Assembly (NCBI GenBank): GCA_003971905.1
Contig: RSEE01000017.1
Span: forward strand, 434,001-498,000
Source of the DNA: Moniliella sp. 'wahieum'
Lineage: Eukaryota
Direction: 5' to 3'
DNA: 64,000 nucleotides
Each line of letters starts with the position of its first letter. The stretch's first letter is position 1. The position numbers and the translations under genes are program-made. Positions 426 to 59,596 of this stretch are shown piece by piece. The notes beneath the pieces are model-generated. The model did not search any database, had not been told where the DNA came from, and was given only the letters and a program-made list of their open reading frames with translations.

Positions 426-1655
426 GGTGAAGGAGGAGTTGTTGGTGGGAAAGAGAAGGAGCTGCTGCAGCTCCGTTCGTGCTTGTGCAGAGGGTAGATA
501 GCAGCAGCCCCGCAGCAACACAGGCGCGGCGCCGGGAAGGCTGCGCCGACGGGATGACAGCACGAGGGCAGTGAGGTGCATGCTGTTTGCCACGCAAGCT
601 GGCGCCGTGCGGGCGGGATTCCAGCTGTTGCTGTGCTGTCAAAGGTTTTTGAAATCAACGGCGGCATAGGGCGACCGGTGAGCGGTGGCCGCCACCCGTG
701 AAGCGATGACGATGCCGCGGGACGAGTGGCAGGCGGCGATAGCGCAACCATCGATAGCGCAAGCGCAGTGCAGCTTACGGCGCCGTGTTTGGGGCTACCG
801 GGTACCGGTTGCCGGCTGCCCGTTCCGTTACATGGGTTAGCACCTCCTCCTTGGAACCATAATATGCCAACTCGATGAAGCTCCGGTACCTCATGAATCA
901 TCCCGAGGCCTGAGGACCAAAGGCTCACCCGCATGGCGAAGAATGACGCCAGAGTACCATCAACAAACAGTTCATCTCGCACCAGAGTATTCTCACCACC
1001 TCGGCTGCTGCGCTTCCGTACGATCATCTCTCGACTGTACAGTTCCAAGCCCCCTTTGAAGGAACCATTTCGTGTGGCCTGAGCAGATGCACAGAGCGGG
1101 GATCGCTTTCCGACATGCGACGGCCCCTAAGGCCTAAGGCCTAATTGGCGTACGCGGTGGCTCCATCATGCATCACCGCACCCAGACAAGGCGAAAGCAG
1201 GTTGAAAAGACTAGTGGCCTCAAAAGCGACAAACGCATGCAGCAAAAGAACCCCCCCTGTATTGGTGACTGCTGATGACATAGGATCTAGGGAGAAGGGC
1301 CACACGACGGTGCAGGCGGAGGGCCTAAGCATAGTGCATGTCTTCATTACATGGATTTTGAGACCAACGATGACATATACCTTGCTGGAGTCGTTTGTAT
1401 TAGCGCCATCAAAACTACGGAGCATGGAGTCATGGGGTGATACACGCGGCGCAGGCGCCAACAGAATCGATTACGATTGCAACAAGGTGTGAGCATCCGT
1501 GGGGTAAACATGGAAGAAATCTGAGCCATGGCAAGAGAACGTTTCAGCCAAACGAAACATATCTTTTTGGTAGACCACCACGTCGCGGGGAGGGTGGAGG
1601 TCAAATGTGAGTGAGCGAAAAAAGGGAAATATGGGAAAATGATAGACTGCCCACA

Positions 1656-3712
1656 TTACTCCTTCTTCTCGGTGCTTTCGCTAGCCTGCTGCTGGCTCCG
1701 CGTTGCGCTTCTCGTAGATCTGCTTGAAGAGGCCGAGCGACGCCTGCTGGGTCTCGTTGATCTGTTCCCGCACCTGGTCCGGGGTGATGTCCGAGTCACC
1801 ATTTTGGGCCTTGGCTGCCAGCTCCTCCGTCTTCTTGATAAGCTCGTTGAGCTTGTCCTTCTCCTCCTGAGGCAGCTGGTCGGCGAACTCGCCAAGAGCC
1901 TTGGAGGTCTCGGCGCACACACCCTGGGCGCGGTTCGCCTCCTCGATCAACTCCTTGCGCGCCTTGTCGGCTTCGGCGTGCTTCTCGGCATCCTGAACCA
2001 TGTTCTCAATTTCAGAGTCCGACAGACCCGAAGAAGCAGCCACGGTAATGTTGGCGTCCTTGCCGGTAGCCTTGTCCTTGGCGCTGACGGAGAGGATACC
2101 GTCGGCGTCAATGTCAAAGGTCACCTCGATTTGAGGCACACCACGGGGCGCGGGCGGGAGCCCACCAAGGTTGAAGTTGCCCAGGAGCTTGTTGTCCTTG
2201 ACGAGTTCACGCTCGCCTTGGTACACCTGGATCTCCACCGCCGTCTGACCATCGGCGGCAGTCGAGAACGTCTGCGACTTCTTGGTCGGGATCGTGGTGT
2301 TGCGGTTGATCAGACGGGTGAAGACGCCACCAAGAGTGTTGATACCGAGCGACAGAGGGGTCACGTCGAGGAGGAGAATGTCGGTCACTTGGCCGGAAAG
2401 CACACCACCCTGGATCGAAGCGCCAATGGCAACAGCCTCGTCGGGGTTGACGCCCTTGCTCGGGTCACGCTTGAAAATGTCCTTGACGGTAGAAAGAACC
2501 TTGGGCATACGGCTCATACCACCGACCATGATGACGGCGTCAATGTCAGAAGGCTTGGCGCCAGCGTCGGCGAGGGCCTTCTTGCAAGGCTCGATGCGCT
2601 CGACCACTTGCCAACCAGCACCTCGAGTTGGGTGCGGGTGAGCTTCTGGTTGATGTGCTTGGGGCCACTGGCGTCGGCAGTAATGTAGGGAAGCGAGATC
2701 TCGGTCGACGGTGCCGACGAAAGCTCAATCTTGGCCTTCTCGGCAGCCTCGCGGATACGCTGGATGGCCATGCGGTCGCCCGACAGGTCAATGCCGACTC
2801 CTTCTGGAATTCCTGGACAAGGTGCTCAACAAGCACAATGTCAAAGTCCTCACCACCCAGGTGGGTGTCACCGTTGGTCGACTTGACCTCAAACACGCCG
2901 TTTTGCATCTCGAGAATCGACACGTCAAACGTACCGCCACCCAAGTCAAACACAGCAATCGTCGCCGCTTCGTTCTTGTCAAGACCGTAGGCGAGGGCAG
3001 CGGCAGTAGGTTCGTTAATCACACGCAGCACGTCGAGGCCGGCAATGGTACCAGCGTCCTTGGTGGCCTGACGCTGCGAGTCATTGAAGTAGGCAGGGAC
3101 AGTAATGACAGCGTGCTTGACGGGCTTGCCGAGGTAGGCAGCGGCAGTCTCCCGCAGCTTACCAACAACAAACGCACCAATTTGCTGGGGCGAGTAGTTC
3201 TGGCCGCGTACCTCGAGCCAGGCGTCGCCGTTGGAGTGGGCGACAATCTTGTAGGACGTTCTTAATGTCCTTCTGCACCTCGCGTCCTTGAACTTGCGGC
3301 CAATCAAACGCTTGGTGGCAAACAGAGTAGCCTCGGGGTTCACGACGGCCTGGCGCTTGGCGGGCACACCGACCAGGCGCTCGTTGTTCTTGGTAAAGGC
3401 AACGACCGAAGGCGTGGTACGGCCACCCTCCTCGTTCTCAATCACCCGGGCTTGCTGGCCTTCCATATGGAGACGCACGAGTTGGTAGCTGCATAGAAAC
3501 GGTTAATATCGGCAACAAAATGGGAGAACACGGGGGATACGCACTGCCAAGGTCGATACCAATGACGGGGCCGTTGACCTTGCTGCCCGTCGAGTTGAAG
3601 CGGACAGCGCCCATGCGGGCGGCGTTGAAGGCGGTGGCGGCCGGCCCGCCGAGCGAGAGGCGAGCAGGCGAGCCGAGGGGAGCGCAGCCTGGCGGAGCGT
3701 ACGGGCAAGCAT
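1656..3712 (-). CDS. SSC1: Mitochondrial Hsp70 chaperone
   Basis: Arg/Ala-rich presequence [21 protein letters not shown], then [14 protein letters not shown] across a GTGCGT...GCAG intron (~3489-3544), [65 protein letters not shown]. Several indel frameshifts. Stop at 1656 or 1681 depending on an indel. Confidence 0.96.
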
Positions 3713-4169
3713 GGCGGTGGTGGGGAGGGAGAAAGCGCAAGTTGCCGCTTCCAGTTTCCAGCTTCAGCTTCAATGAACTCCAAGCATGAACAGAAGGAAC
3801 AAGCGGAGGGAAAGAGTGGACACTGCTCCTGTGCTTCTGTGCGGGGTGCCACCGAAGGCAGCAGAACACACCAGACCCAGCGACACCGAATCAGGCACGG
3901 CGGCAGTCTCACGGACGCCCATTAGCCTGGCCATGCGTTGCCGCCATATTGTTCGGTGCAATCTGACATCGCTGCCATGACTGGCGGGGACTTTGCCGCT
4001 GCCAGGCGGGGGCGTTGGGCGGAATGTTGGTTCCGCCATCGGTGCAGGCAAGAGTACCTGGTGAATATTTTTTTTTTCGGCCGAGGTGGTCACGCAGGAG
4101 GCGAAAGCCACTCGCAAACAAGCGTTTGTGTATTGGGCCTCTGCCACCGTCAACTTGGGTTCCCCCATC

Positions 4170-5650
4170 ATGGTCGCTTCTTCGGTGCGCAAGTCAACTG
4201 GCGCCCGCCGCCAAGAGCGGCTCGCGCAAGACCAAGTCTTCTTGGCGCAAAAACATTGACCTCACTGAGGTCGAGGCCCAACTGGAAGCCTCTCGTGCCG
4301 CCGAAGGCGGTGGGGAGGCCATGTACTCCATCGACACCCAGGGTGACACCGGTCTTCGTCCCAAGGGGCCCCGCCCACTCAAGTCGCTCGAAATCCTGCA
4401 GAACAAGTCATCTGTTCCCGCTGTCACGCACCTGCGAGGTCGGAGAAACGTGGTGAGCTCAACGGACGATGCGGAGGCAGTAGCCCGTTTGCGCCGGGCG
4501 GGCGTGCCCGCCAAAAAAGTGCGCGACCGTCTGCGTCGTGCGGCGGGGGAAAGTCGTGACCGATGCCATGGGTGGGATCAACAAGGCGGACCAGGACAAG
4601 CTGCAGGATTACAGCGGGGTGGGCCAGGTGGCCAATCGGGACTTGTGGGCGGACGAAGAGGAGGGCCGAGTGAGCCTGCTCCAGCCAACTATGATCCCGA
4701 GTGGGTTAAGGACCCACGGGATAAGAAGCCCAAGCCTCCCAAGTCGCTTTCTGTCGCTATGGAAGACATGCGTTCGGCTTTGGGCAAGGCGCCTAAGGCG
4801 AATGCGGCCCACGAGCAAGTGGCTTTGGCGCGCAAGTTGGCTGCCGTGCCGCTGCCCCACCCCGGCATGTCGTACAACCCTGAGGCTGAGATCCACGAGG
4901 AACTCATGAAGAGAGCATTCGATGTCGAGATGGCGCAGCCCAAGAGGAGGACGCGAACGACAAGGTTCGCGCCCTGTGGGAAAGATGAGTGCGGCGGAGA
5001 AGGCGGATGTGCTCGCCAGCAATGGCGCCTCTGCTACTTCCTACCGCGGCATGCAGATTGATGTGCCCTCCGAGGCGTCCGAGTCTGAATCTGAAGCGGA
5101 GGCGGAATCTGATATGGATCATGAGGTGGCCCTGCTGCGGGAACAGCAGCGGCAAAAAGCCATCAACGGAAAACGCAAGACTACGGCTCAGCGTCACCGT
5201 CATGCTCGAGCGCGGGCTCAGATGCTGCGGCACTCGTCCTCCAAGGCGTACAACCGCTACATGTCGGAAATGCCAGGCAAATTGCGCGCGACACTTGCTT
5301 TGGATGCAGCATCGCGAGCACGTCTGCAGGCGGCCCAGCGCCGGCGCGACGCCAAGCTCGCAATTTTGACCAAGACGGGGATGAAGGGGCAAAAGGTTGG
5401 AGGCCAAAGGTTGTCTCTCACTATGGGGCAAGGGCACGAGAGTGTTCAGCTGCCTGAGCACCTGTCGGAAAACTTGCGCGCCATGAAGACAGAGGGCAAC
5501 CTCTTCCGTGAACGCTTCCAGTCGCTACAAACCCGTGCTCTTACCGAGCCCAAGCGGACGATTTCGGATCGTGAGGCCAAGAAGGCAAGGGACTCACGCA
5601 AGAACTCTTGGAAGGAGGTTGAGCGGTTTGCCTTCAAAAACTTCAAGTAA
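4170..5650 (+). CDS. NOP53: Ribosome biogenesis protein Nop53/GLTSCR2
   Basis: SRKTKSSWRKNID at the N-terminus, PHPGMSYNP..H..L, and C-terminal VQLPEHLSENLRAMKTEGNLFRERFQSLQTRALTEP...FKNFK*. These match Nop53 family motifs. Joined across frameshifts. Confidence 0.9.
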
Positions 5651-10430: not shown

Positions 10431-11510
10431 TGCTGGCTCTGCCGCCGTGGGTGGTGCATGCGCCGATGCGATGATGTCATCAGGCCATCCCCAATCCCCA
10501 GAGTGCAATCACGATCACTAACAATGCGCCTCACCCGTCGCAGCCCCACCCATGCCGTCGTGCCTGGCAGATTCCATTCAGCGCATCCAGCGCTTAGCGC
10601 TTAGACTCAGCCTCAGCCGCTCAGCCGCTCAGCCTGTGAGCTACCAGGGAGGCATCACCCAATCAACCACAGTCCAAAGCGTCTGCCGCGCACCGCACTG
10701 GCCTGCAGCCTAAGCGACCAGCATGCTCGATACTCCCACCTGCTCCTCCCCACGGCGTTGCACCTAGCGGTGACCGGTGACCGGTGACAGCCCCAGTGCC
10801 CTGGCACTAGCCCTGCCGCAGCACAGAGCATATGGCAGGCCTGGTGTCTGGGATCTGGCAGGCGGGGTTCGATGCAGGAGTTTTTTTCTTTTTCAAACAA
10901 AGGACAAGCGTTGCCTCCATGGACCGAATCTTGGCCAGTGTTTAGGTAGCGATTAGCCGATTAGCCCGGTCCGACCAGCGACCCTGTGGCCACGGACATC
11001 GTGCCTCGAGTAGCCCAAGCGCTAGTGTCTCGACGTCATTTCAACTTTCACCTTTCAATTCGACCAACGTTCGTTGAGCAACGTTGTGTGTTGAACTTTC
11101 AGTTGAACGTGATTGATACATTGTCTCCGAGTCCAAGCATGTCCAAGCCCACCAAAGCCAGGTGGCCAGTTCTAGTCGACGCAATCTCGCCATTCCCCCC
11201 TTGACATGAAAACTGGAGAGCTATTCGCCTAAGCCCAGCCCATTTGGCTTCACTAATCATTCAAGCCAAGTATGGAATGGAAACGCAAACGAGAAGGCTG
11301 AAACCGTCCATGTGGTACCGCAGGGGAAGGGAGGGTGTGGTCCTTGAGAGTTGTGCAGGGAAAAACAACAGGTCGAAAAATAGTCCGTCCCGATGCTAAC
11401 AGTGGCGGCAAGGTCAAAAGGCAAGAGGGTGTATAGGGTCAACAACAGGGGCGCGCGGGGCCATCCAGTGGTTGAGCTGTAAGAGTAACTAGAGCTGGAT
11501 CCCATGTTGC

Positions 11511-12160
11511 TCAAGCCTTTGGCGGTGCGCGTATCCTGGGGGATAGCCTTGAGGCGCACCATAAGGGCCTCCTGGCCTCCATATCCCCCAGCCCCGGCTA
11601 CAGGCGGGACAAAAGAGCCATCAGCATCGCCGCGCCACTGGCAGATGCCGCAGACCCAAATGTCGTGTGACTTGAATGGCTGCAAATAGAGTAAACCCAC
11701 TTGGTTTTAGCCCTCGCGCTTTTCAAAAGATGGGCAGGACGTACGATCAAAGGCCCCAGCAAAGAGAGAACCATCGACGGGGCGCGCGCCGAAACCACCT
11801 GGGCATTGTGGCAAGGGGCTGAACGTGAGAGAGAGAGGCATGTCAGTATGGCGCGCGCAAGGGCAGACGAATATGGGACAGGTAGTTGGAGGATGGGGAG
11901 GAGACGGACCAGACTACGAGCAGGCGGGGGGAAAAGAAGGGTTAGCAAAGGCAATGGAATGCTGGAAGAGGCCAACGTACCATGCGGCGTTGTGTCTGTC
12001 GTGAGGTGCTCGTCGCAGCCAAAAATGTCGGAATACCTGCCAACAAGAACGGCCAACAGGCAAGCGACATACATCATGCATCACAGCGTTAGTACGGCAT
12101 AAGTGCCTTCAGGAAGCTGGGAGAGGTCGTTCCTTGGTACGCACAGAAAAAGATGTCCAT
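11511..12160 (-). CDS. Small 5-exon zinc-ribbon protein with a Gly/Tyr/Pro-rich tail (zinc_ribbon_15-like fungal family)
   Basis: ATG at 12160 gives MDIFF, intron (GTGCGT..CTAAC..GCAG), CIP.FGCDEHLTTDTTP, intron, C..CHNAQVVSARA..WFSL, intron, PFKSHDIWVCGICQW, intron, GGPYGAPQGYPPGY. Two CxxC pairs. Exon boundaries approximate because of indels. Confidence 0.7.
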
Positions 12161-12530: not shown

Positions 12531-12643
12531 ACGTGACCAGTGACTAGTGACCTGTCCGGGCGTGACGGTGACACGGTGACACGTGACGAGCGTGACTAGT
12601 GACTAGTGACTAGCTAGTGACTAGAGTGACTAGTGACTGACCA
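12531..12643. repeat. Degenerate tandem array of (AGTGACT) with CGTGACG/GTGAC variants
   Basis: Read directly: ...cgtgact agtgact agtgact agct agtgact ag agtgact agtgact ga; more than 10 GTGAC cores in about 110 bp. Confidence 0.9.
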
Positions 12644-12939
12644 GCATCCTCCTAGTCCAAACGCTCCCGCTGCCATCGACTCGGAGATGTCCAATCCACT
12701 CCATCTTTCCATCTGCGAGCTGCATGGGTTTGTAACAATACAGCCGTCGGTCCTGACATGTGACAGGGGTCCCACCACTAGATAATGCAGCCCCTCCAGG
12801 AATACACAATGAGCGAGATTCTTTCCGGGATCGTCCGCGTCCAGACGCATGGCACTGAACCAACGCCAACGACAAGAGGACAGTCCCGAGTCCAATGAAA
12901 TCGGAGGTGCGAGCGGGCTGGTGCCGGACGGCATGACCA

Positions 12940-15076: not shown

Positions 15077-15771
15077 GGCGACAGAGATGGGTAAGCGGAG
15101 GGCGGGTGTGGGGGTGCTAGGTGGTGGGGGTGGTGGTCGTCGCTGGTGGTGTTGGTAACGCCAGCTGCCGCCCAGCCCAGCCCAGCCCAGCCCAGCCGCA
15201 GCGTGTGCAAGCTCCGAGGCAGTGCGGCCGGCCAAGAACAGCAGGCGAAGGGCGCGTGGAGCAGCAGGCGGGGGCGGCCGCGACGGCTCAGTGGCCCCGT
15301 GCCGTGCCGTGCGGCCCGCATATCCCCCCTGCGGTCTTGTGCCCCTGCTTCGGGCTGCCACGCCCGACTGGCCGGATGCCTGTGGAATAACGCGCGGATT
15401 TGTCCTGGCGGATAGGGTTCCCTCCAGCTGTTCGGCCTCTGGGGACGTGGCGTGTGGGCGGGGGGGGGGCGGGCGGCCCGGCAGTGCCGACGCGCCGACG
15501 CAGACAAGACGCCGCCGCAACCACGGCGCCGCCCGGGTCGGTGACACACCACCGCTGAGGCTCAGCGCTCATGCACTCCTGCACTCCTGTCGCCCTACGC
15601 GCTGCCCAGGCTCACACGACTCCGGCTGCCACGTCCCCACTCTCCACCCTCGCCCATCCACCCACAATCAGCCACCTATGTATCCATCCATCCACCCAAT
15701 GCCCCAGCGGCCCGCCCGCGCATACCTTGCCCAACGCATAACAATCAGCCCCCCCGGCCACCTCCCCCTGG

Positions 15772-23039: not shown

Positions 23040-23845
23040 AACCCCTACGTCTCGTGTCCTCTCCTCTTTTCTCTTCCTTCTCTATCCCTCAGACAGTGAC
23101 CACTGTTCTTGAGTTGCAGACAGGTAGGTGTCTGCGTGTACCTCTCTCTTTGATATGGAACTACTAGGATATTGTACCCGTTCTTCCCTCGGCTTTTTTG
23201 TCTCAGCCCTGTCTGCATATTACTGGCCGAGCCGGTGGGGGCTTGCAGCGTGATGACGGGAGCCCGAGCCATCGTTTCGGGGCACTTGGTTTCCATATTG
23301 AAGGTGAGGCCTGAGGAGGGACCATTCACAGTTGATTGAGCCTGGACACTACTGAAAGGAACGGAGCAATGGAGACGAGGTGTGAGAGAGGCCCCTTAAT
23401 TGGGACATTGGCTCGCGCGCGGCAGAGAATAACAGTGTGTGGTTGCGCTTGTGCCGGAACAACAGCAGGACTAACGGGCCTGTAGTCTGTAGTCCTAGAG
23501 GGTTGGCCGTAAGGCCGTGACCGGTGACGCATGCAACGGCCGGGCGGGTAGGACACGCCTTGCTGTCACTGGAACACTCTTCTCTCGCAGGACCACCACG
23601 GGATAATATCTAAAGCTAAAATGCACAGGAGTGAGACCTATACATACCACACCTATATATATCCCGTATCCCGCCCACTAGGATCTCATCAACCCACCAC
23701 TGTAGACGCCACTGGGCCTATAGCTCTGAAACAAGAAAACCTGAACTGATAGAATCGCAGGCCTGCTAATTATCTCGCGTTTGCTACGCAAAAAAAATGT
23801 ACTTGTTAAAATGGATATATGCATAAGTTGCTTTGGAGATAAAAT

Positions 23846-31334: not shown

Positions 31335-32168
31335 GGAGGGATCAAACACGGATGGTGGTGGGGAGGGGCGAGGAAGAGGCAGCTTATAGCAGATCTAAAA
31401 GGCAGCAGCCATATCGCCCGTCGTTTTTCTATACTATACTGTTGGGCATCAATGAGTGATCGAGCCCGTGTCGGAGAGCCAGGAGCGCACATGTGCCCCG
31501 GCGCGTCGGCTGCGTCTATTTATTGAAGACGCATGATAAGGCACACGAGAGGGGCAGTCCTGTGGCGCTTCCCCCGAGACGAGGGCTGGGACGCAGACTC
31601 GCAGCCGTCTGCCGAAAGGGTGGATGGGGCGCAATGCCAAAGGGGCTGTCGAACTGTATTCCTCGAGTATGCCTCCCCGCAGGGTGCGCAGCTGGGCGCG
31701 CGCCGCGCCCACGCAAAGAGCAGGACGCCCTGGCCGTCAGGCCTCAGGATGCATGAGTTGGCCACTGCCCTCCTGCCGCTGTGGTCCTACCAAGGGTGCA
31801 AGGGTGCAAGTTTGAAGTGCACTCGAACGTTTCAAATGCCTCGCGCCCCGAAGATCCTCCCTCCTTCCTTCGGCAGGCCGGGGCAGCACACACACGCGAG
31901 CCCGATGCTGCCTGGCCACCACAACACTCATGCTCTTCCCGCTGCCCCGGGCTGGCATGCGTGTGGCAATTGGTGGGTGGAGTGCCATGCCCCCCGCTCG
32001 CACCTCCCTCTCGACCGTGGCTCTCTGCCCCCCTGCGCCGCCCACTGCCTTCCGTTGCCCCCGTCCCATTCCAGCCGCCTGCATGCTCCTTCTTCAGCTC
32101 CCCCCCCCCGTACGTCCTCCCTCCTTCGCCTGACCCCCAGCACACCGGCCCGACCAACGAGGCCCTGG

Positions 32169-32862: not shown

Positions 32863-33265
32863 AAGCTCAAATGCCCCCCTCCCCCCTATTGACCATGTAT
32901 CGGAGTCACGATGCCGTGCTCCCCATCCGAGGTCTTGGTGTGAACTGAAGCGGCCAGCACCAAGCACAGAGGCTATAGTAGGAGGCCATAGAACTCAGAT
33001 TCAGAAGCTCAAGAATCCCAGACAGACAATCGATAATCGAGAATTGGTCAGCTGACGTCATAGACGCGAAAGCGGGCACCGAGTCGATGGCGCACGGGCC
33101 AGTTGTTGCCAGGCAGGAGTGTGAGCCAGCAAGAAGGCACCCCAGCACCCAGCACCAAGCCCGGAGAAAGCCCCGGTTCGTTCTTTCCCGCTTCTTGACC
33201 TTGCTTGTTGCCCCTCCCCCGGGTCTTGTCGTTTCTTTCCGTGCCCCCACCTTCCTCTGTACACC

Positions 33266-35742: not shown

Positions 35743-36594
35743 GGTGGAGGGGGGAGCACAACATATCGAGGGTGGTGGTGGAGACGAGTGACTAGTGTAG
35801 TGACGGGGCGCGGCGACAGGTTGCATGTGACCAATGACAAGTGGCAAGCGGAGGCTGGCCATTCGCGAGCTGCTGCAGGTGGCCTGCGCCGCAGTCCCTC
35901 CTGGGCTCTGTTGCGGCGTGGTGCAGCCGGTTGCCCACCAGCGCACTGGTGTTAAGTCAAGCTTCAAGCAGCCAACTATCAACGTTCACTGAACGTTCAA
36001 ACTCAGAGCCTGCAAGCTGCAAGGACGCGTTGCCTTCTGGCTGAGTCTCGAGTCTCGTACTGAGCAACTGGTTGGCACGAGCCAACGTCTGGCGAAACCC
36101 GGATCCCTCCCCCCCACTGCGCCTATGTCTGCTCTGCTCTGACGCCATGCCAGGGACTAGCTATCCTAGCCCCCTCTGGCCTCCTGCCCCCTCCTCCTGA
36201 ACAATTTGCGGGGGTTGTTGGCTTTCGGAAGCATGAATCACCCATCCCTGATGGGCTGTTCCAACAAGATGCATAAAGCTTGAAGGGCTGCCGGTTTGGT
36301 TACCCGTACGGCGAAACCCTAGAGCACGCTGGCTTGCGCGCTCACGCCGTTTGCCACCGCCTCACTACTCTCAGCCTTTCCCAGGGGTTCAAACGCGGTT
36401 ACACACAGTGTTACGCCCTACACCCTTGGCCTTACCACCCTGCCCTCGGTGGTCGTAGTCTGAGGCTCGCAGTATGTAGACACTTTCCAGAATCGGGCTA
36501 GGACGAGAGGCTCAGAGATTCGTTCAGTTTGTGGGAGCAGGTGTTGTATTTGTGAAACGAATATATGCAAGTGCAACAAATGACCCCAAAAGAA

Positions 36595-36694: not shown

Positions 36695-36986
36695 TACCTG
36701 CTGGGTGAGCGGTGTGCGTAATCAGTTCCTTCGAAGAAACGCATGGTCTTGAAGCTTATCTCTCGTTCATCTCTCGGTCGACTCGGCGTAACTCAGTGTA
36801 CTCAGTTTCCCATTCAAATTGATCCTTCCCACATCCTTCCCACAATACAAACCCTGCGATGGTTTGATGATGAAGATGAATAACGAGGACAAAAAAGATG
36901 AAGGAGAGATCTTGGACCACCTGGAGCCTGGTTTTGCCCATTTGGCGGGCGGGCATCCATGTTAAGGGGGAGGGCCGAGATACATC

Positions 36987-38646
<1,660 letters not shown>

Positions 38647-41638
38647 CGTGCGTGACTTAGCACAGGCGGTGGTTGGCGGTGGAGAGAAGAGTGTTGATTG
38701 GGTGGCCCGGGCTGGGCCGAGCGGACTGTCGCAGACCGAACGGCCTGGGCCGGGCGCAGGCTCTGTCCAGCTGGCCCAGACGCTTCCGCAGGCTGGTGCG
38801 CCTACCCTGCCCTGTCTGTCTACCCCGCAGTCCAACGCAGGTACCGGGAGACACCGGAACACTCAGGAGGCTGAGGCGCTGGCGGGCGCCCACGGCACAG
38901 GCCCACTATCGCGTGGCCCTCGCCTTGGCGCCCATTCCGCCCATCGCAGATGGGCAGTGTCCGATCCCCAGCCCTAATTCCTCCCGGTCGGTTGTCCTGC
39001 CGCCTCTTGCCGCGTGCGCAGACAAGCACTCACATCTCCACGGGTGGGCACTGAATTTGAAATTGACAGGAATCCTGATTAGTTATCCAGTTGCCGGTCA
39101 CAGGAACCCTAGTGTACATTACGCGATACCAGTTACGAGGTTGCTCTTATAGCTATCCATGATGCATGACCTCCTGTGACATGCATGACATGTGATACAC
39201 GGGGTCTCGGGTGTCGCTCGCATGTGCCACATGCCTCGCGATGATATCACAGCCCGACTGACGAATCGGGGACAGAGTATATTGGGTCCACTCTTCATAC
39301 ACACCACAAACGCCAGTTGTTTTTGGCCTTGCCACTAATGCTATTCCTCCTTTCTCTCTACAACTTCACTATACAGGTATGCACCCATGCCTTTACGGGA
39401 ACATCAGACTCTGTAGCCACCGGCGTCCCTCTCACCTTGGGGCTGTGTGAGAGGCCGAGGCCATGCGACAGAGGACCGAAACACATACAGAGGGATGTGG
39501 ATGAAAGTGATCCTGAACCGGGGGGGACCAAGGAGCCGCGGCTTAGTAGTTCAACAGAGACTATACTGATTCGTTAAAAGCCTTCCGGGAGTGTGAAGGC
39601 CAAAATCCGGAAAGCTTCCTTCGAAACAGACAAAGGAACGTTTATTCTTCTCATCGCCAACAGGCTGAGTTTTACCTACCTGTTCTCGATCTGGATGTGT
39701 ACCATCAGTAGTAGTTCGCCGCATCCACGAGGAGCCTGTTGTGTCTTGGAAACAAGGAGAAACGAGGGACTTCGGAGGAGCTCATACTGACTACTTTGAT
39801 CGATTCGATCTTCCCTCTTCCCCTGCGAACGGCTGAACAAAGAGAGAGACTGGCGAGGCAAAGAAGAAAATACGAAAAGGAACCTCGCCCCGCATCACAC
39901 AGAGTGTGTTTTGGGGCACATAGCGTGTGATGATTTTCTCCGGGAGCCCCCCGAGTTCAAAAGAGTTAGTCAACAAAAGCGGGGGTTGCTGGAAATGGCA
40001 ACGTCGAAGCACGAAGCTCAAGATTACGTCTGCCCCTGTCTCTCTTCATTGTGCGCATGTGCTAAGTGCGGTTACTAGTTACTAGTTTGTCCACAGCATT
40101 TTTGCACAGGCTATACTGCACAAACGTCAAGAACTACCACACGATTGCAGTGTTTATTTGGCCACGTCGGCGTACACCTGCTCTCGCTCCTACCTCTTCC
40201 CCCCCCCCTAGTCCACTCTCTGTCGTTCACCTCGTCTGCACCTCACCCTATAATGATACTACAGACGGACACATGAGGACGTCCACACTTCCAGAGCATT
40301 TTGCCTTCTCCAATTCGGGAGAGGATGCATAGCGGCCATAGAAACTCCGACGAAGAAGCACCACTACCGCGGAGACCCATCAATTGTCTTGGATTGAGTC
40401 GTCGTAGGCCGTGAATTGAGAGCAGCCTCTAACATATGTAGCCCGCCACAAGAAGCTCCCCGACACTAGCATTCTTCTCGATGTCAACTATGAAGCTTGA
40501 AGAGGGCCATATGCTTTCATCGATGGCCATGGCCAGAACCATCAGCAAATGAAACCCACGTACACCGACCGGGAAGCTGCAGCGCACTTCATCCGTTATC
40601 ACTACTACAGGCGATGAGAGGAAGGTGGGGTGGCGTTTCATGTTACGGTGCCAGGGGTGTTTGATCTCCCCCCCTAACAGAAGTTTCTCGAGGGAAAATG
40701 GAGAAGAAAAAGGTATGGAATGATTGGCGCGTTTTGCCCTGACCAAACTGCTCGCGACGTCTCCCCATGGGCTTCTCGGCCAAGCCTTCCCTCCTCCAGA
40801 GCAGAGATATGTCAGGAAAAGGGGGGTTCGGAGTCCCAAAGACGAATACAATTGCTCACGCCACTACGTGAGCGGAGCAGCAGGGATGGCAACCATACGC
40901 CGAGCAGTACCTGCAACGGCTAGCCGGCTTGAGGCCCGAGCGCCTGATCGACGATCAGCTGGTTCGGCAGCAGTGTTCTTGGCATCATATGCGCTATCCG
41001 AACTGGGTACTGGCGGCCGGGACGGTGTGTTGCCTTGTGTTGGTAACCGAGGAAGATGTAAAACATAGCCTAAGGAATGCCGGTGCCGGTGATCGCCCGA
41101 TCGATGATACAGAACAAGCAGACGAGCGCACCCCGGAAGTCCGGGGCGTGTGATGCGTGTGACGCGCGTGATGTGTGGGGGTGGCTGGGGGAGCTGTGGC
41201 GGCACTGGTGCGGCGACAGTGGGCGAAAGGCTGAGCCTCAGCGCCTCGTCTGAGGCCGGAGCGCCTCAGCAGGGCAGGCGGGGTGAGTTTGGCGATGCTC
41301 GGACCTGCTCGACCGCCAGGCGCCAGTGCCCTGGGATGCAGGATGCCGCGCGCGCCCACCGGCCACGGCGTATTTTGACCCAGACTGTGACAGGCCACTT
41401 GGTCGATGATCTGTGCCATGTGGCATGCGAACCCATCGGCCGCTGCGCAGTGCTTATTGACTAGCGCGGTAACTGAATAGCGCGGTAACTGAATACTACA
41501 GAGCATCATGCATCCATCACCGCCGGAGACACAACAGCGTAGGCTGGCTGCCACACCAACAAACCGCCGACGCGCCGGAAGGAGCCCTCGAGGCTGTGGA
41601 CCGGTGATCTCACCTGACTACCCCTGCCGCGCGAGAGA

Positions 41639-44417: not shown

Positions 44418-45728
44418 GGTCAAAGCTGGGCGCTCCGCTCCGCGAGAAGCGGCGTCGTGCACGATACATGGGTGCGGTCGGGTGCACTTCCTTGGCGAAG
44501 GTGGTGGCAAGGTGTGGAAAGGGCACAAGGTGAGATGGCAATGAATGGTCAGGCCCAGGAGCATGGCTCGTGCCCGTACGTACATACAGCGTGGGTCTGT
44601 GGTGTGAAATTCACTTAATTAACGTTCAGCATGCAACGTACGGATCCCCGCACAATTCCCACAACCACACCCGACCGCCAAAACGATTCAGGGGGTCGCA
44701 TGTGCCGCGCTCAGGCTGAGCGCTACTGGTAGGCGCCGACCACTTGTGTTCCGCTCCAGCCCACCCCCCTTACCGGATTTCCACAGCGTCCCTGGCCACC
44801 TGCTCGGGAGCCAAAATGGAGCCATACGTGTCGGGCATCATCATTTGTGCCGCAGCTACCGAGTATATCACGACTAAGATGGTGGTTGTGTATAATAGGT
44901 GATCCTATAGCCCTGTTAGGCTTTAGTAATAGGCCTTAGGCCTTTTAAATTTTATAGGGCTCTATCTATATGTAGTTTTATTGATGATGACTAGATTTCC
45001 ATGGCTGGTGGGAGTACTTGGGTGGCCGGTGAGGTGGGCTGGCGAGGTACTTAGCTTGGCGCTCACAGCTCACGGGTTTGTTACCAGAGGTGGTGGCTGA
45101 TGTCAAGTTCACAGGCGGGTTTGTCAAGGTCATAAGGACGGCTCGAAGGGTTATTAAAAGCCGGTTATTAGCGAGGCCGCTCGGCTGAGCCGCTGAGCCT
45201 CAGCGCTTAGGCTCACAGCAGGCTCAGCAGCTCAGCGCCTCAGCGCCCATCAGCGCTCAGTCCGATCATCGATCATCGCCGAGAGGTTAAAACTAAGGTA
45301 TTAGATGGGGATGCTTAACCGCAAAATATTAGTAGTTCACACCATTATCACCAAGAGGTCACTTCTTCGTACGCTGGATGCTTCCGACATAACTCCCCAG
45401 TCCCTCCATCCTCTCCATTACCACCACCTCACAGCAACCACACCACCACCACCACTACACCACTCTCTCCCTCGTCCTCACCTTCAACACAGCCCTGCTG
45501 TCAGCGTGTTGCCCTTATTAATATATTGGAGCGCCATCCAATCACCGCCATCGCTGCATGCTGCCATCCTCACCTTCATTCATTCATGCACACCTCCGAA
45601 CCCCGCCCCGCCCCTGCCGTAGGGTCGGGTACACCTGTGCCTCCGCGCGGTTATCGTGTCCCCGCCCCCGCCCATTGCGCCAAAATCGCCCAGCATACCT
45701 ACCCCTACGCTCCGCCACCCCTTCCCCC

Positions 45729-52050: not shown

Positions 52051-52423
52051 TATTCAACAAGAAATGTGGGGCGTGCGAAACCACAAAGTCAAAAGCAGAG
52101 AGGCGGGACAACAGAGCAGGGGCAAGAGACCGACGACCACAGACCCACTCACACGCAGCACACTCTGTGTTGACGGGGGCTCGTAGTACATATACAAATC
52201 ATATCAACGAGGGAATAAAGCCACAAGAGTGATGGCCCACACATGATAAAATGACAGCGACGTGTGAGGTCCACAGTGTCATCGGTACGGCGACCAAAGC
52301 CGGTGGCGAACGATACAAAGAGACGGAAGAGAAGAGAGTGGGGCGAAGGGGCGAACGGAAGAAGCGTTAACGCAACCACAGTCCGCGTATAGAGATACGA
52401 GCGCGGAAGGAGATGAGGTGCGT

Positions 52424-54906
52424 CTATGTCTCGTGATGTGCTGTGCGCGCTTGTGCTCGTGACGGAGTTCCTCCTCCAACCGTTCCCCTTCACGGTCCAG
52501 ATTGTTGAGGTGCTCCTCTTGGCGGTCCAGATTGTAGAACACTGCAGAGCAGAAAGTAATTCACAGGTTAGCTTTGCTCGCATCCCCCCTCCTCCTCCTC
52601 TTCGAAAAGAAGAGAGTGCACTGTGCGTACAAAAGATGAATACAATCCCCGCTCCGCTCGAAAGGCCAGCAACAGATATAGTTCTCCACCAGCTTGGGGT
52701 CATTGCTGATGGGGGTAAATGCCTCTCCGATGGCCGAGCTGATAGCTGAGGTGAACAGTTGGATGCCCATCACAAACGACTTATCTTTTTGGGGGCCTTG
52801 GAGTAGGCATACTCAAGCGAAGGCACATTGACAAAGAGTTCCGATGTGGCAATCAGAATGTACGCCCCCGATTGTTGCCACACGGTAATCGGCACCTTTG
52901 TGTCGCACGTGGCGGCGTAGTAGCCACAGGGTGATTTCTTGTAAATGAAGTGCTGGGTCACGGCTGCGTACACCATGGCCAGAGCCGCAACTTGGTACCC
53001 GACCGCCATGCGCTGAAGTGCAGACACCCTCCATCCGCGTCGACGCAGCATGGGGTAGACGACAAAGTCCAGAATGGGGACAAGGATGATAATGGCTGTT
53101 TATTAGAGGGGGTGGGGGTGGGCTCAAATGTTAGCATACTACTCTGTCCTCTGTTGCGATAAGTACAACAAGCAAAAGAAGGAGGGTCAGGAGGAGCATA
53201 CCAATGGGGTCCAGGTTCTGGATGATACTGTTGGGCACACCGTTAAGTCGCATGGTGGCAGCCTGCGAGAGAAGGTTGGACGTCATTTGATTGTACGCCA
53301 GCTGGTAAATGGGCAAGAGACAAAACACTTGGCATGCCTTGAACGTCCGGCGCACCTCCATCACCCATATATCTTCAAATGTCATCCACTTGGGACGCGT
53401 TTCCGGGGAGAAGCGGCTGGGAAGTGCATATCCCAAAAGTCATCGGCCCTCATCTTCTTGAACATCTTGACTGGGTTCCAGCTGAAGCAGGGTTTCGTGC
53501 AGAACCACAGAATGCGGAAGGCTGACGGCATGAGCGATCCCGATGGGGGTGTCTTGATGTAGTAGTTGCGCCAGAAGTAAAGCACGGGCCCACAGATCAT
53601 AGCAAGATGGTTGGAAGGTGTACTCGAGCCAAAAGCCTACATATTCTATCAGGCAGAAACACAACCGTCAATAACGACGTTTAGTAAAGAAGGTAGGATG
53701 GGAGAAAAGGGGGACGTACTTTCAGAGTAGGCATACCAACTTGGCCGCCCAGGGCACCAATGTTGATGAACAAATAGCTGAACATAGACGGTAGATCAAT
53801 AAGTGCGCTCATATATATGTGCTATTCTCTTCCGTCAGAAAAAAGGGACGTACAAACCATGACAGGCGCGTCAGAGTCAGACTGGGGTCAATGATCACCC
53901 TCTCGTTGCTCTTCTCGAGGGTGGTGGTGTACATCTTGGTTGCCGCTACCTGTTCGGCAATGAGAGGGCTCACCTGAGAACAGAAGATGCTCAAAAGTCA
54001 GTACATGCTTTTCAATGAAATAGGACGGTAGACGAGAGCCAGAAAACGTACCGAAGACTTGAACCAACCTGTACCCCACCAAAGATAATGATAGCAATGA
54101 TGAGGCAGGCATACGACCCGTTGACGTTGTCCATAACGGAAGGGATGGCACTGACTGTGAGTCAAGTCAATGTCACGTTCCCGCCAGATTGTCCTCGGCG
54201 CTGTGATGAAAAGGAGGAGGAATGCACGTACTAATGAGAATAATGTGGCCAACGGTTGCAATGACCAGTGCAATAGCAATCGTTTTAAAACGACCCCAGT
54301 ATGAGTCGGCCAGGTAAGCACCGAGCAGAGGCATGCAGTAAACAGAAGGAGTTGAAGGTTGTAATGCCAAATGCGGCCCGCTGACCTTTGTGGAGCGCCC
54401 CCGTCACCCCATTCGAGGCTCGATTGGCACCTGTGCGGCCACCCTGACTGTAGGGAGGACGGGGTTGTTGAATAAAGTTGGTGAAGGCGTTGATGACACC
54501 AGAGTACGAGAAACGTTCTGCCAACTCACATATGGCCACTCCAAACGCACGCCAGGGAACTGGGCAGGAAGGCGACGAGAGTTTTCAGCTCGTCGATAGT
54601 GGGTAGAGTGGGTGGAGGATGGATCATAGCGGCGGGCGTCACTTCCACTAAGCTCTTCGAGCACATTGCTGTCGATCCCATCCAACTTCTTTTCGTCAAT
54701 AGGGCTGGTGCTATTAATCTCCGCCCGGAGGATATATCATCCTTGGAACCGACCGGAACCACGCTTTCTTTCTCGACACCCACGGTTTGGGATGCGCATC
54801 AGAGTAGAGCAAGAAGGGGTTAGCTCATAGGGATGCGATGTAATAACAATTCGCACACCTCTAGGTAGACGAGGAAGGAAAGAGGTCAGAGCGTACGGGC
54901 AACCAT
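52424..54906 (-). CDS. PTR2: Proton-dependent oligopeptide transporter (POT/PTR2 family)
   Basis: ELAERFSYSG, PLLGAYLADSYWGRFKTI, GTGWFKSS..SPLIAEQ, FINIGALG, YNQMTSNLLSQAATM, LEYAYSKAP. Several introns; both ends approximate (the ORF track continues to 52279). Confidence 0.92.
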
Positions 54907-55786
54907 GGTTACGACGGTTGAGCTGGGGCTGACTGGGCCAAAGGCGCTTTGTTGGGGAGTGTCCTGGGCTGGAGCTGTGAGGCTGGTGTTGGGACAGTGG
55001 CGAAGTTGTGCTAGAAGTGGTTGTCCAGCGATGAACGAAAGGGGCAGGGTGGGGCGGGACGGGACGGAAAGACTGTTGTGGCGGTTAGTTTTATACATAC
55101 ACCACAGCACAGCCATTTTCGGTACTGTGACTATATCAGTGTGGCTCCAACAATATGTGAAAGAGGACCGAGCTGGAGCATCAACGAATGATACTAGCCT
55201 GTAAAGGGCTCTTTCGTGTGCACAAAAAGGACAAGGCGCGAGCCACAACAGAGTCAAAGCTCAAGGGTCGCAGGGTCTCATAGAGAGCTCTGCATCATGC
55301 ATCAGACCTCAATATTCAATGCACTCAAACACCCTAATGCCCCAACCCCTCCTCCCATCCGGCATTTGTCAAATAGGAGGGGTGGGCAGAGAAAAGGCGT
55401 ATAGAACTCGGTAAGCACATGTCGAGGTCAGTCGACGGGGCGAAGGCGCACAGCTTATCGACACACTGATAACGTCTCAGTTACTAGTGACGACGAATAT
55501 ATAAGAGCCAATAGGCGCTCCCTGGCACTGGCGCTCTGCTTTATGGAGGGGCTCAAGCACCCAGGCACTGGGGGTCTGTATGAGCTTCAACCCCAGAAGC
55601 CCCTCTCTCCCGCTCGAGCAGGCATGTGTCCGCCCTGTCCGCCCCCCGCATTTCGATGCTATCTCAGATCTCATGCATCAGGTACTGATGCAATGCAACG
55701 CGCAAAGCTTGGCAGCGCAGGCACTTGCGCCGTGGCGCGCTTCGTTGACATTTGCCTTTGGAAAGCGGCAGCTGACTATGACTACT

Positions 55787-55814
55787 AGTGACTAGTGACT
55801 AGTGACTAGTGACT
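55787..55814. repeat. Perfect (AGTGACT)x4
   Basis: Read directly from the sequence. Confidence 0.95.
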
Positions 55815-56083
55815 GCGCCCATGTGGGGGCTGAGGCTTCACCAGGGTCACCAGGGCCCAAGATGCCTCAGGTAGGCGTTCAGGCGCTCTGGCCTCTTCAG
55901 CACTGGCAGGCCCGACATGCTGACAGCAGTGACTATATAGCCTCTGTCTATCGACCGACTAATAATATTGATGCTGAGCGTGATGGTCAATGGCGGCATG
56001 ACGCGATATGCTTGTAGCTAGAAGCTTGAATCTTGAACCTTGACTAAGTTGAGTTTGAGCGCGCGTTGAGCCTCAACGCTGAG

Positions 56084-56152
56084 CTTGAAGTGCCTTGAAG
56101 TGCCTTGAAGCTTGAAGCGCCTTGAAGCTCTTGAAGCTTGAAGCTTTTGAAG
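56084..56152. repeat. Array of seven CTTGAAG units with 0-3 nt spacers
   Basis: CTTGAAG at 56084, 56094, 56104, 56111, 56121, 56130 and 56137. Confidence 0.92.
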
Positions 56153-57269
56153 AGGTTGAATAGCTTAAAGAGACAAGCGCCGCATGAGCGAGAGGGCGGA
56201 GCACGGGAAATGCGGAGGATGAGCCAATAGTTTATCGTATACAAACGATCTACTCGATCTACGAAGTCATTAGGGCCTATAAAGGCGAAGACCTACTAGT
56301 AAGGCGTAAACGCGTAAAAGGCGTAAAAAGAGGACGCAACGTACGCTACGCCACAGTCCAGGCACACCAGGCACACGGCACGAGAGATCATCGATCACGA
56401 TCACATGTCTCACAGTATATATCTCGTCTCAATGTCACGTGTCGCGGCATGTCACCTGTCAGACGTTAGATCTTAAATCTGTCAGATCCAGAAAAGTCAC
56501 CGTGTCGGCTTCACAAGCTTCAAGCTTCAAGTTGGGGAAGGGCTGCGTTGGGGCATATGTGGGGAGACGCACTGGATAAGCGGCTGGGGCCCAGTGACGG
56601 AGTGGGAGTGGCGAGTGACGCACACACACGTTTCCCTTTTGGCGGGTTTCCCCCTCTGAACGTCTGAACGGTGACAGTGCCGTACGTAGAACACAAAGGG
56701 GCAGCAAGCTTATAGCAAGTCTGATATTGATAGCCGATAGCCGATAGTTAGTCTATTAATCGATAATCATTGATCGAGATCATTGCCATCATCGATCCAT
56801 CATTGCATCATCTCGTTCCTGATCGCATCTGCATCATCATCGACATCATCGATCAACATCGCTGGGCTACTATGGCGGATAGTAATATGTATCTCCACAC
56901 GCGGTTGTGCGACCGGCGGTGTTTCAACCGTTCAACGTACGTACGTTCAAAACGTGTCATCCGAACGTTCCTCATCAGTCACTCGGGCGCTGAGCTACTC
57001 AGGCCGAGATCTGAGTCTGAGACCTGAGAAGCTGAGGTACCATGCGATGCCGAGCCCAATACCCCATTTTTCTCATTCGCAGAAAAACCGAAAGGCAGTG
57101 GTTGACGTTGAGACGTTGAGGTAGGACCAGCACAGCCATCGAAAGGGAAAAGACAGGGACGAAACGCTTTGCCATTGGCACATTTTCATCCGCGGCGTGT
57201 GCAGCTCGGGCCACAACAGTTCAACCAAGAGGAGGTCCATGTGGGTGCTGTTGGACCGTGGCTGCTGTG

Positions 57270-58910
57270 AGTAATGGCACTATACAGTAGTAGACATTTA
57301 ATAACGATGAACATTATCCAATGAGAGGTTCTTCATCAGTAAGTCCCCTTCCCAGTGCACAACCATCTTGTTGGCATATATTACTATACTCGTATATCGT
57401 GATATGACCAACACCAAGGGGAAAATAGGGCTCTTGTTGCTGGTGGAGTGTAGCCTTGTGGTACTTGGATGACATTCTTGTCACCCGGTGTACGGTTGTA
57501 GATCATCGCTTGCTCCACAAAACAGTCGATGCAGGTCCTCATTGCCTTTCCACAGGCGCTGCCGTCGTTTTGTGCACCTATATACCTCCGCGGCGGTGCA
57601 CAACCTTGACCTTGCTCCTGTTGTTGTACCCGAGTCCGTAGGGCTGTGTGCTCTACCTTTATTCCTGATCCTCCAAACGCTTCAGGCTGCATTTCCTGGT
57701 TGACCAGGATACGCAGTGTTGCATTTCACATCTGGCGCCTTCCTCTTCGTCCTCATCCACAGGGTGCATCGAAACAACATATACCGCCAGATTGTCCGGA
57801 TGAGGTACAAGCGGAATGGATCCAGCACGACCTTATTATGGAATACCCCACACTCGCGTTGGATGCGGAGCGGGCTATGAGGCGTTAAAACGCTGAGAGT
57901 AGTCAACACTTGCATTTGCTCCAATGAGGAACGGCGCAAAATCCGGACCTGCATTTGTCAGTGAGCGTGAGGTGATGTGCCGGTATCGGGAAAGTCAAAC
58001 GTCGATGAAAACACAGCAATGTCCACCCGTGAGTTTTTGGGCCAACTACCGCTCTCTGACACTGTTGAACAGCACCTGTCAAGCTCCTCCTCACAGTGCT
58101 AGAGGGAAGGCGTTGCTTTCTTAATCTCTCTGTCGTGTGCGCATACAGGTTCATACAGGTACGTTCAACAATGGTGATAAGGGTGTCGTTAACCTCTATG
58201 GCGCTGCAGCACGACGCTCCACCGGGAGCGAAACCTATGTACGGTTAGAAGAAAGTGAGTAACCGGAAACTGATAAACCCCCACCCGCCTAGGAAAAAAG
58301 CAACATAATAGTCTTGAGGATGTGACGATGGTTGCCCTTCTTGCCTCGGAAGAGAGGTCCCCAATAACCACTGGGTTCCAAATTAACCCCATACATAGGA
58401 ACTCCACGCCAACACCTCGCCTAGCTCGCCCCCCAACTGCATGGAGTGGAACAGAGGCTACGAGAAGCCTCCTCTTATCAGTATGTGAGTACAGTTTAAG
58501 CCATTGTGTAGGGTGCGCCATCAACCTTAAGCATGTCTTCCCAGAGGTCGAGTCCCTGGTCTATGCAGGCATCCGGCAATGCTACCTGCTCCTCAGATGG
58601 ATGCAGTATCAAAGGCACACCCACAGTCTCTCTCCAATTCTCCTCGAATCCAATCCCGCTCCTGTAATAGGAGCGCACATGATGCCTGAGGCCTGACACC
58701 CGCTGACGCCGGTGTATTAATCGCCGTTTTCTGGCATAACTACTAAACAAACGAGAGGTGGTGTGCCGACCTTCTTTTCAAGAATGGGAATGTCGTCATT
58801 CCCCGTACGCCTTCAGGCACTTTCACCGTGCCCTAAAGTACTATAGATAGCATCTCCGAGTTCCCTCTGCAGTCAAAACGTTTATATTGTCACAGAGTGG
58901 GGGCCAAGAC
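57270..58910 (-). mobile_element. Degenerate non-LTR retrotransposon relic homologous to the 24060-25200 element, extending into decayed RT/thumb sequence
   Basis: Colinear matches to copy 1: PIPAHHLTLTD vs AIPSVPYLKLSD; SKCKC vs SRCKC; LIRTI vs LIRSI; PEAFGGSGIKVEHT vs PGALGGTGI.EVDHT; VHKTTAAPVERQ vs VHKSTASPLERR; KY..QEPYFPLVL vs KY..QEQFFPLVL; MSTT vs MSTT. Upstream remnants LGP...LG...AY.DDIPIL and GGGLSV. Many stops. Confidence 0.7.
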
Positions 58911-59267: not shown

Positions 59268-59352
59268 GCCTTGCTATTTCAATCGGTAGAATTTGAGACT
59301 CTTACTTAGGAGGTCCATCTCACGGTTGTGGGTTCGAGTCCCACGTGGGGCG
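59268..59352 (+). tRNA. tRNA-Lys(CTT) with 12-nt intron and atypical D arm
   Basis: GCCTTGC/GTGGGGC acceptor, TGAGA CT CTT A[CTTAGGAGGTCC]A TCTCA, T arm GTGGG TTCGAGT CCCAC, T7 terminator. D stem reads TTTC/GAAT. Confidence 0.8.
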
Positions 59353-59561
59353 TTTTTTTGTTCAATTTTCCCGAACAAGATGCCACCATCGTTTGATCAG
59401 ATCGGTCCGGGGTAAGTAACCGGTCACCAGGCCTGCGGCCTTGAGGAGCCTGAGAACTCACAGCCGGAGTAGGGCGATGGCGGGCTGACCGCCGTTAGCA
59501 TCCTCAGGCCTCAGGCTGGGCCCGCTGTCGGAGGCCTCGGTTTTTTTGGTCGACCACAGCA

Positions 59562-59596
59562 AGTCACTAGTCACTGGTCACCGGTCACTAGTCATT
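59562..59596. repeat. 7-bp phased array AGTCACT AGTCACT GGTCACC GGTCACT AGTCATT
   Basis: Read directly from the sequence. Confidence 0.9.

Follow-up and report, generated by a model that had tools for sequence, protein, structure and literature searches.

The DNA analysed here is a 64-kb stretch of contig RSEE01000017.1 of Moniliella sp. 'wahieum' (the whole stretch is called the window below), in which the DNA between genes carries short tandem arrays of palindromic heptamers centred on T-N-A. The Pfam matches among its larger open reading frames (ORFs) were all fungal and included the FKS1 glucan synthase, KRE6, Nop53, GPI2, an oxysterol-binding/PH/ankyrin protein, hexokinase, HSP70 and an ABC transporter. 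The closest named relatives of an Arc1-like protein were exclusively Ustilaginomycotina (Tilletiaria, Malassezia, Meira, Exobasidium and Sporisorium; 44–71% identity), and the G+C content of the window was 50–62%. An earlier note, written from the letters alone, had listed a series of these arrays and proposed that they were scars of a recurrent process; each of its sites was recovered where it had been placed or a few bases away. Our analysis strongly supports the view that the arrays are scars of one recurrent, precise mutational event.

Tandem Repeats Finder and an exact-run scan both located the arrays in the window. Exact period-7 runs that reached 14 bp or more and had a primitive unit numbered 27. 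An odd-palindromic rotation was present in 17 of the 27 runs, compared with ~11% expected for random heptamers, and 15 of these 17 had T at position 3 and A at position 5. The other two were GAGTCTC (36043) and CCGACGG (30654), the latter being conserved FKS1 coding sequence whose 12-mer occurs at the same gene position in seven other fungal loci. No palindrome excess was found at other periods (16/73 runs at period 5, 1/34 at period 6, 0/14 at period 8 and 0/7 at period 9). Recurrence of an identical palindrome at a spacing of 7 was seen in 15 cases, 13 of them T-N-A, against 0.26 expected under a third-order Markov model. The 7-bp phasing described in the earlier note held for most of its sites but not for GCTCAGC (10612–10634) and GCTGAGC (45184), which have period 8, nor for TGTGACA (~39177), which has period 9; the CTTGAAG cluster at 56084–56146 is present, but its spacings are mixed (7–10) rather than uniformly 7.

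The length at which the excess begins defines the elementary event. Among period-7 runs, T-N-A palindromes were at background at 10 bp (22/669) and 11 bp (7/204), rose sharply at 12 bp (15/67) and were still high at 13 bp (6/29). Of the 15 T-N-A runs of 12 bp, 12 had one predicted register, six as xyTNA-y'x'-xyTNA and six as its reverse complement (the mirror form). This is the product of the transformation proposed earlier, xyTNAwz to xyTNAy'x'xyTNAwz, and the excess starts exactly there. When the 12-mer xyTNA-y'x'-xyTNA was searched for directly in the window, 49 matches were obtained with 0.1 expected. The other complementary cores in the same scan gave five (GNC), two (CNG) and no matches (ANT) with ~0.3–0.6 expected for each, and the twelve non-complementary cores gave 18 when pooled, with ~6.6 expected. 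Enrichment of T-N-A-centred palindromes over other cores, a check named in the earlier note, was borne out in the window by both the run counts and the 12-mer scan.

Merging of the 49 matches gave 30 loci, 11 with the forward form only, eight with the mirror form only and 11 with both, the last being arrays of at least two whole units. By the search rule (49 matches against 0.1 expected), y'x' is the reverse complement of xy at all 30 loci. Eleven different xy pairs and all four central bases occur among these loci, in agreement with the common grammar with about ten flanks that had been noticed before, and the central base is G or C in 25/30. In comparisons between two copies, the central base was identical in 49/54, complemented in two and otherwise different in three; therefore, xyTNA is copied directly. 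In the reconstructed targets of 19 single events, T and A were fixed, the centre was G or C in 15/19 and there was no preference outside the core.

The spectrum of joints was narrow. The class with a=b=2 (trim-2/add-2), which is the same as a=b=3 because A pairs with T, contained 30 T..A loci compared with 0, 2 and 3 for the other complementary cores. A plain retained 7-bp duplication was found at 11 loci, all with a unit that was already palindromic, and a non-palindromic unit with T at position 3 and A at position 5 occurred in 0/11. In a minor class with the form unit + y'x' + unit (period 9), there were four T..A loci compared with 1, 0 and 0 for the other complementary cores. Five of the ~12 period-8 loci ('heptamer + 1' arrays) fitted a one-nucleotide version of the rule, which by our estimate is not above chance. 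At 10589, GCTTAGC precedes the original GCTTAGA. In the mixed array at 59562, one unit, GGTCACC (59576), has a compensatory x/x' pair. This array can be explained by an original AGTCAtt, repeated events, one A>G substitution and a further event whose inverted copy took up the changed base; judged from its sequence, slippage would have yielded GGTCACT twice instead of GGTCACC. An origin of the arrays as slippage microsatellites was rejected, since the minimal 12-bp product arises from a single-copy site, the palindrome excess is limited to period 7 and GGTCACC was not copied from a neighbour, although slippage may add to long arrays.

The arrays lie in non-coding DNA. None of the 30 loci overlapped Pfam-matched coding sequence (13,799 bp), where ~6.5 would be expected under random placement. 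Loci were mostly upstream of genes or between divergent genes; for example, those at 10592 and 10769 are upstream of the oxysterol-binding gene and those at 44930–45278 are between hexokinase and the next gene. An ORF-poor stretch at 55.2–59.6 kb holds 14 loci. Overall density was 47 loci per 100 kb of window, or about one scar per kb of non-coding DNA.

We then compared the window with 80 fungal metagenome loci (814,738 bp) retrieved with an FKS1 fragment, 54 of which matched named Agaricomycete FKS1 proteins at an identity of 88% or more. The T-N-A 12-mer occurred 35 times in this set, with 5.3 expected, at a density of ~3 loci per 100 kb, which is about 15-fold below that of the window. The ANT and CNG cores were at expectation (5 versus 5.0 and 5 versus 5.7, respectively), and the excess of GNC (14 versus 4.7) was mostly due to the FKS1 coding 12-mer. 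The signature is independent of the window's assembly, and the taxonomic range supported by these data is Basidiomycota, in a set that is mostly Agaricomycete-like. In the Agaricomycete contigs, orthologous sites paired a single-copy ancestral state with an expanded array. A single GGTTATG in L062 corresponds to GGTTACC GGTTACC GGTTATG in its close relative L041, a gain of 14 bp that is one of seven indels of at least 5 bp in 9 kb. In a second clean comparison, L049 carries 28 additional bases, with CATGATG CATGATC at their end, at a position where a single diverged copy is present in L040; another comparison, involving GTTCAAC GTTCACT in L040, is compatible with the rule but ambiguous. The check between orthologues suggested in the earlier note thus returned lineage-specific insertions of +14 and +28 bp of the predicted form, and these indicate mutational scars and not conserved binding sites. 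Strict conservation of arrays between species, which the note had set against its own proposal, was not seen in the Agaricomycete contigs, where arrays were absent at orthologous sites of relatives. Together with the compensatory x/x' change in the mixed array, this lineage-specific origin upholds the preference for scars over a transcription-factor motif or plain slippage.

Separately, an older 7-bp direct repeat (CGTGATG-like, present twice) is common to related Agaricomycete contigs (L041:13350-13370, L062 and L066). One or other of its units has become palindromic by single substitutions that differ among species; therefore, some 12-mer matches are secondary.

The positions of the arrays, single events and variants in the window are listed below.

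Table. Heptamer arrays, single events and variant classes in the window.
Position	Feature	Remark
1126..1144	CCTAAGG array	2.7 units (19 bp = 7+7+5)
1164..1175	Single event CATCA-TG-CATCA	
10589..10604	GCTTAGC + original GCTTAGA	
10612..10634	GCTCAGC units, period 8	Heptamer + one base; variant class, alone not significant
10768..10788	GGTGACC array	3 units
12072..12083	Single event CATCA-TG-CATCA	
12533..12640	Complex GTGAC cluster, AGTGACT + CGTGACG units	Exact signature at 12539, 12593, 12625
12603	AGTGACT-AGCT-AGTGACT	Variant inside GTGAC cluster 12533..12640
12616	AGTCACT-CT-AGTCACT	Variant inside GTGAC cluster 12533..12640
12754..12765	Single event, mirror, TGACA-TG-TGACA	
15560..15571	Single event GCTCA-GC-GCTCA	Directly upstream of Metallophos gene start
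23305..23316	Single event, mirror, CCTGAGG type	Downstream of KRE6-like gene
31737..31748	Single event, mirror, CCTCAGG type	Between FKS1 and Arc1-like genes
33028..33040	GATAATC period-7 run	13 bp
35957..35969	Single event, mirror, CTTCAAG type	Upstream of kinase gene
36791..36806	ACTCAGT-GT-ACTCAGT	Period-9 variant (unit + y'x' + unit)
39158..39169	Single event CATGA-TG-CATGA	
40071..40087	AGTTACT array	2.4 units
40491..40502	Single event, mirror, CTTGAAG type	
44930..44954	CCTTAGG x2.1, then TTTTA-AA-TTTTA	
45184..45278	GCTGAGC/GCTCAGC units, then GATCATC x2.3 (45263-45278)	First part period 8 + irregular spacing
55291..55320	CATCATG x2 + ATTCAAT single event	
55661..55673	Single event TCTCA-GA-TCTCA	
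55784..55814	AGTGACT x4.4	Longest array
56084..56146	CTTGAAG cluster	Exact doublets at 56104 + 56130, other copies 9-10 bp apart
56386..56397	Single event GATCA-TC-GATCA	
56514..56531	CTTCAAG x2.6	
56757..56768	Single event, mirror, GATAATC type	
57006..57029	Degenerate TCTGAGA array	Period 7, 83% matches
58684..58696	Single event CCTGA-GG-CCTGA	
59502..59516	CCTCAGG x2.1	
59562..59594	Mixed array AGTCACT AGTCACT GGTCACC GGTCACT AGTCAtt	

Several other features of the window were recorded. Five tRNA genes were identified with Rfam (17089–17183, 23846–23929, 36595–36694 on the minus strand, 51402–51496 and 59268–59352), most of them long enough for an intron, and ARAGORN identified only the first. 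The arrays at 59502–59594 lie 150–240 bp 3' of the last tRNA. A 12-bp repeat, CGCCATCTCCAT, is present in ~7 copies at 60183–60270, where the ORF running into the ABC-transporter gene begins, and is probably a coding low-complexity repeat. The Pfam match 'NAD-specific glutamate dehydrogenase' at 1615–2685 (+) is antisense to HSP70 and looks like a known spurious antisense ORF and no gene. A chain of ORFs with no Pfam matches at 51681–55260 (minus strand) may be a single frameshift-broken gene with no assigned function, so that the 'gene-poor' region may be less empty than it appears. Non-coding DNA at 55700–57150 is dense in short non-palindromic tandem duplications of period 8–11 (e.g. GGCGTAAA, CCAGGCACA, TCTGAACG, GATAGCC and GACGTTGA), and short tandem duplication in general far exceeds the Markov expectation there.

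How could one event produce this pattern? We infer a staggered break followed by a hairpin or fold-back stage and rejoining, a geometry for which the anatomy of the scars gives good support. A site xy-T-N-A-wz, with N mostly G or C, gains 7 bp to become xyTNA-y'x'-xyTNAwz or, in the mirror form, xyTNAwz-z'w'-TNAwz, so that the product consists of a direct second xyTNA and an inverted copy of the two outermost bases only (three counting the A). The two mirror forms were about equally frequent (six and six among the 12-bp runs). Since the second xy must derive from a target duplication and the mirror products set the boundaries 2 nt beyond T-N-A, the break would have a 7-bp stagger with its dyad on N, i.e. 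two cuts symmetric about the central base that would give a 7-bp NNTNANN target-site duplication. The ends would then pass through a hairpin or fold-back stage, and opening 2–3 nt off the tip would leave palindromic (P-type) overhangs; the even palindrome y'x'|xy at the joint would be the residue of an opened hairpin, or of a polymerase turn-around, at the end of the right-hand copy. If the hairpins were nicked 3 nt from the tip, the 6-nt overhangs A-w-z-z'-w'-T and A-y'-x'-x-y-T could pair through their terminal A:T and T:A. Ligation on both strands would leave a 4-nt mismatch, which replication would resolve into the two mirror products. Such overhang pairing would account for the fixed +7, the equal mirror forms and the lack of plain duplications. 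The new unit would be a perfect palindrome and again a target, with opened ends that are fully self-complementary; because the overhangs of a palindromic unit match perfectly, arrays would grow by one unit per event. The activity would operate in open non-coding DNA. As pairing alone leaves the use of T..A only unexplained, the restriction would lie in which sequences the cutting enzyme prefers, and the flexible TG/CA step is one possibility.

The agent was considered in the light of known transposons. In canonical hAT chemistry, known from the Hermes literature, 8 bp of target are duplicated (7 bp for hAT7), the hairpin is offset by one nucleotide and the base next to the element is replaced by its complement. 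Hairpins on flanking DNA are formed by hAT, Transib, MULE and RAG and opened by host enzymes, and end joining leaves footprints (PMC5499845). In Basidiomycota, 7-bp target-site duplications are reported for Kyakuja (KDZ superfamily; five Agaricomycotina orders) and hAT7 (Pucciniales) (PMC12730594). Papers on Cryptococcus transposons gave duplications of 8 bp, 4–8 bp, 3 bp and 2 bp and reported no footprints, and an Agaricus paper gave a 9 bp duplication. With a known hairpin route and elements that duplicate 7 bp in Basidiomycota, insertion and excision of such an element is the most economical agent. In our judgement, there is about an even chance that the arrays are written in this way by a cut-and-paste transposon that duplicates 7 bp of target, or by a nuclease of such origin.

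A number of results weigh against this explanation. Searches for terminal inverted repeats with 7-bp duplications gave no candidates in the window and no such element in the 815 kb of metagenome loci, so that the elements flanked by array sites for which the earlier note had suggested a search did not turn up in either; this was a small sample (64-kb window plus 815 kb). No transposase domain was present among the window's 110 ORFs by Pfam, and four large indels between related contigs contained no element with 7-bp duplications. The complemented central base predicted for hAT was not seen (unchanged in 49/54, complemented in two), which contradicts the hAT-type footprint raised in the earlier note and makes hAT7 a poor fit; the note's broader idea of hairpins and P nucleotides survives in the short inverted flank copies at the joint, but not with the canonical hAT offset. 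The text and readable supplement of PMC12730594 state no target preference or cleavage chemistry for Kyakuja or hAT7. Pairing alone fails to account for T..A only and not C..G, G..C or A..T, the footprints are more uniform than is usual for end-joining repair, and a density of about one scar per kb of non-coding DNA is high when the window holds no transposon. Finally, some of the metagenome signature matches are chance, such as TTATCGATTATC inside an FKS1 exon, and GTTCAACGTTCA in L045 arose via intron substitutions with no indel. The sole candidate from the inverted-repeat search of the metagenome loci was a TA-flanked Tc1-like element, which is irrelevant here, and a repeat search of the window returned the arrays, tRNA ends and coding repeats but no dispersed element. 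A full-text literature search found no description of xyTNA-y'x'-xyTNA scars, which does not prove that none exists.

Host DNA metabolism could write similar scars with no transposon, either when a resected 3' end at a double-strand break folds back (snaps back) and primes synthesis before end joining, or through a short replication template switch at the quasi-self-complementary T-N-A. We regard this as possible but doubtful. Short (5–34 bp) templated inverted insertions by fold-back at breaks are documented in yeast, where they need DNA polymerase delta and end joining (PMC11724301), and a host process would suit both the spread of the signature across distant Basidiomycota and the failure to find a transposon in the window or the 815 kb of loci. 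However, neither fold-back nor a template switch explains why copying should stop after exactly two bases and resume at x, and the left flank offers no microhomology for the return, there being none beyond T..A. Thermodynamics would favour C-N-G or G-N-C, but only T-N-A was enriched. In the joint spectrum of the window, the inverted copy is always 2–3 nt with a fixed gain of 7 bp, whereas the yeast events, as far as the available text of PMC11724301 describes them, vary in length with microhomologies of up to ~10 bp.

Other readings fared worse. It is improbable that the arrays are functional cis-regulatory elements, i.e. sites of a dimeric DNA-binding protein multiplied by slippage and kept by selection. 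Their non-coding, mostly upstream position would fit, as would the recurrence of some 12-mers (e.g. CATCATGCATCA, which has five copies in the window and is shared with L016 and L042), but a binding site would not explain 11 flank pairs and all four central bases under one grammar, a minimal unit that is an asymmetric 12-mer instead of two whole sites, arrays that are lineage-specific between related species (L062/L041 and L040/L049) or a compensatory unit at 59576 that is unlike a slippage product. Some arrays may have been co-opted secondarily. Heat-shock and bZIP sites were ruled out because there are too many flank types, telomere-like repeats were rejected, and paired topoisomerase I cuts at T/N were ruled out because they give no 7-bp gain. 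PIF/Harbinger footprints, a candidate of the earlier note, are very improbable even though this superfamily targets a T-W/N-A core that matches the arrays. Harbinger duplications are stated to be 3 bp (PMC12730594), and a 3-bp TNA duplication cannot give the second direct xy, which requires at least five duplicated bases, or seven by mirror symmetry; moreover, N is G or C in 25/30 loci and not W, and neither the window nor the 815 kb yielded an element. An artefact of assembly or base calling is hardly credible. The assembly does look like unpolished long-read sequence: HSP70 (1684–3502), FKS1 (26442–31394) and other genes, essential ones among them, are split by many frameshifts into overlapping frames with contiguous Pfam profile coordinates, and comparison with a homologue revealed a 1-bp deletion and a short out-of-frame stretch in window gene sequence. 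Indel errors may therefore have left the unit counts of arrays slightly off. Yet single-base indel errors degrade a 7-bp palindrome pattern and cannot generate it, let alone make exact structured repeats of 12 to 31 bp, and the same signature, with orthologous presence and absence, was found in independent metagenome assemblies.

The scars matter beyond this locus. One base-level rule covers 30 exact loci in 64 kb as well as degenerate copies and therefore explains a visible share of this fungus's intergenic DNA, and the same rule is legible in distant Basidiomycota. If the agent is a transposon, the scars record past mobility in seemingly transposon-poor genomes and make its target and chemistry legible; under a host activity, promoter variation would have a new source. 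Any genome can be scanned with so simple a rule, which also offers a precise readout for the genetics of fungal end joining and hairpin opening. More tentatively, and in our view rather unlikely, the agent may be an unrecognised basidiomycete DNA-breaking activity (a domesticated transposase or host nuclease, not a by-product of a resident transposon) that cuts NNT(G/C)ANN with a 7-nt stagger in open non-coding DNA. Hairpin-processed repair would then write palindromic heptamers, scars would be better substrates than the parent site and thus self-amplifying, and the process would have become a main source of new promoter sequence in this Ustilaginomycotina lineage, at about one scar per kb of non-coding DNA.

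Among known systems, the Tc1/mariner element Sleeping Beauty leaves the canonical footprint TAC(A/T)GTA. Like the units described here, this is a 7-bp odd palindrome, formed when two 3' overhangs pair by their ends and the central mismatch is resolved either way, which is also the logic of the model we propose; its arms, however, come from fixed transposon ends plus the TA target, whereas those of the heptamers come from variable flanking DNA. Hairpin-prone microsatellites such as CNG triplets likewise consist of tandem odd-palindromic units of which either strand folds on itself, but the arrays follow an insertion rule with an inverted copy instead of slippage and have period 7 and a T-N-A core. 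Yeast fold-back insertions share short templated inverted copies beside a break, end joining and a fungal host; in the available text of PMC11724301 they are of variable length and dependent on microhomology, with no fixed 7-bp gain, T-N-A rule or direct duplication. Kyakuja and hAT7 have a 7-bp duplication and are likewise elements of Basidiomycota (PMC12730594); Agaricomycotina, the host group of Kyakuja, is where the signature is thin. No copy of either was found in our sample, and the text and readable supplement of that source report them from Agaricomycotina and Pucciniales and not from Ustilaginomycotina. The arrays also resemble the excision footprints of hairpin-forming transposons (hAT, Transib, MULE) and the P nucleotides of V(D)J coding joints, which share the retained target duplication, short inverted flank bases at the joint and end joining. 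Here, in contrast, the duplication is 7 bp and T-N-A-centred, one class dominates (30 loci), palindromes are stacked in tandem arrays with no element, and the one-nucleotide offset of hAT hairpins is contradicted. We rate the arrays as a footprint of the transposon/P-nucleotide type, with the fixed 7-bp, T-N-A-centred and self-amplifying form as its new aspect.

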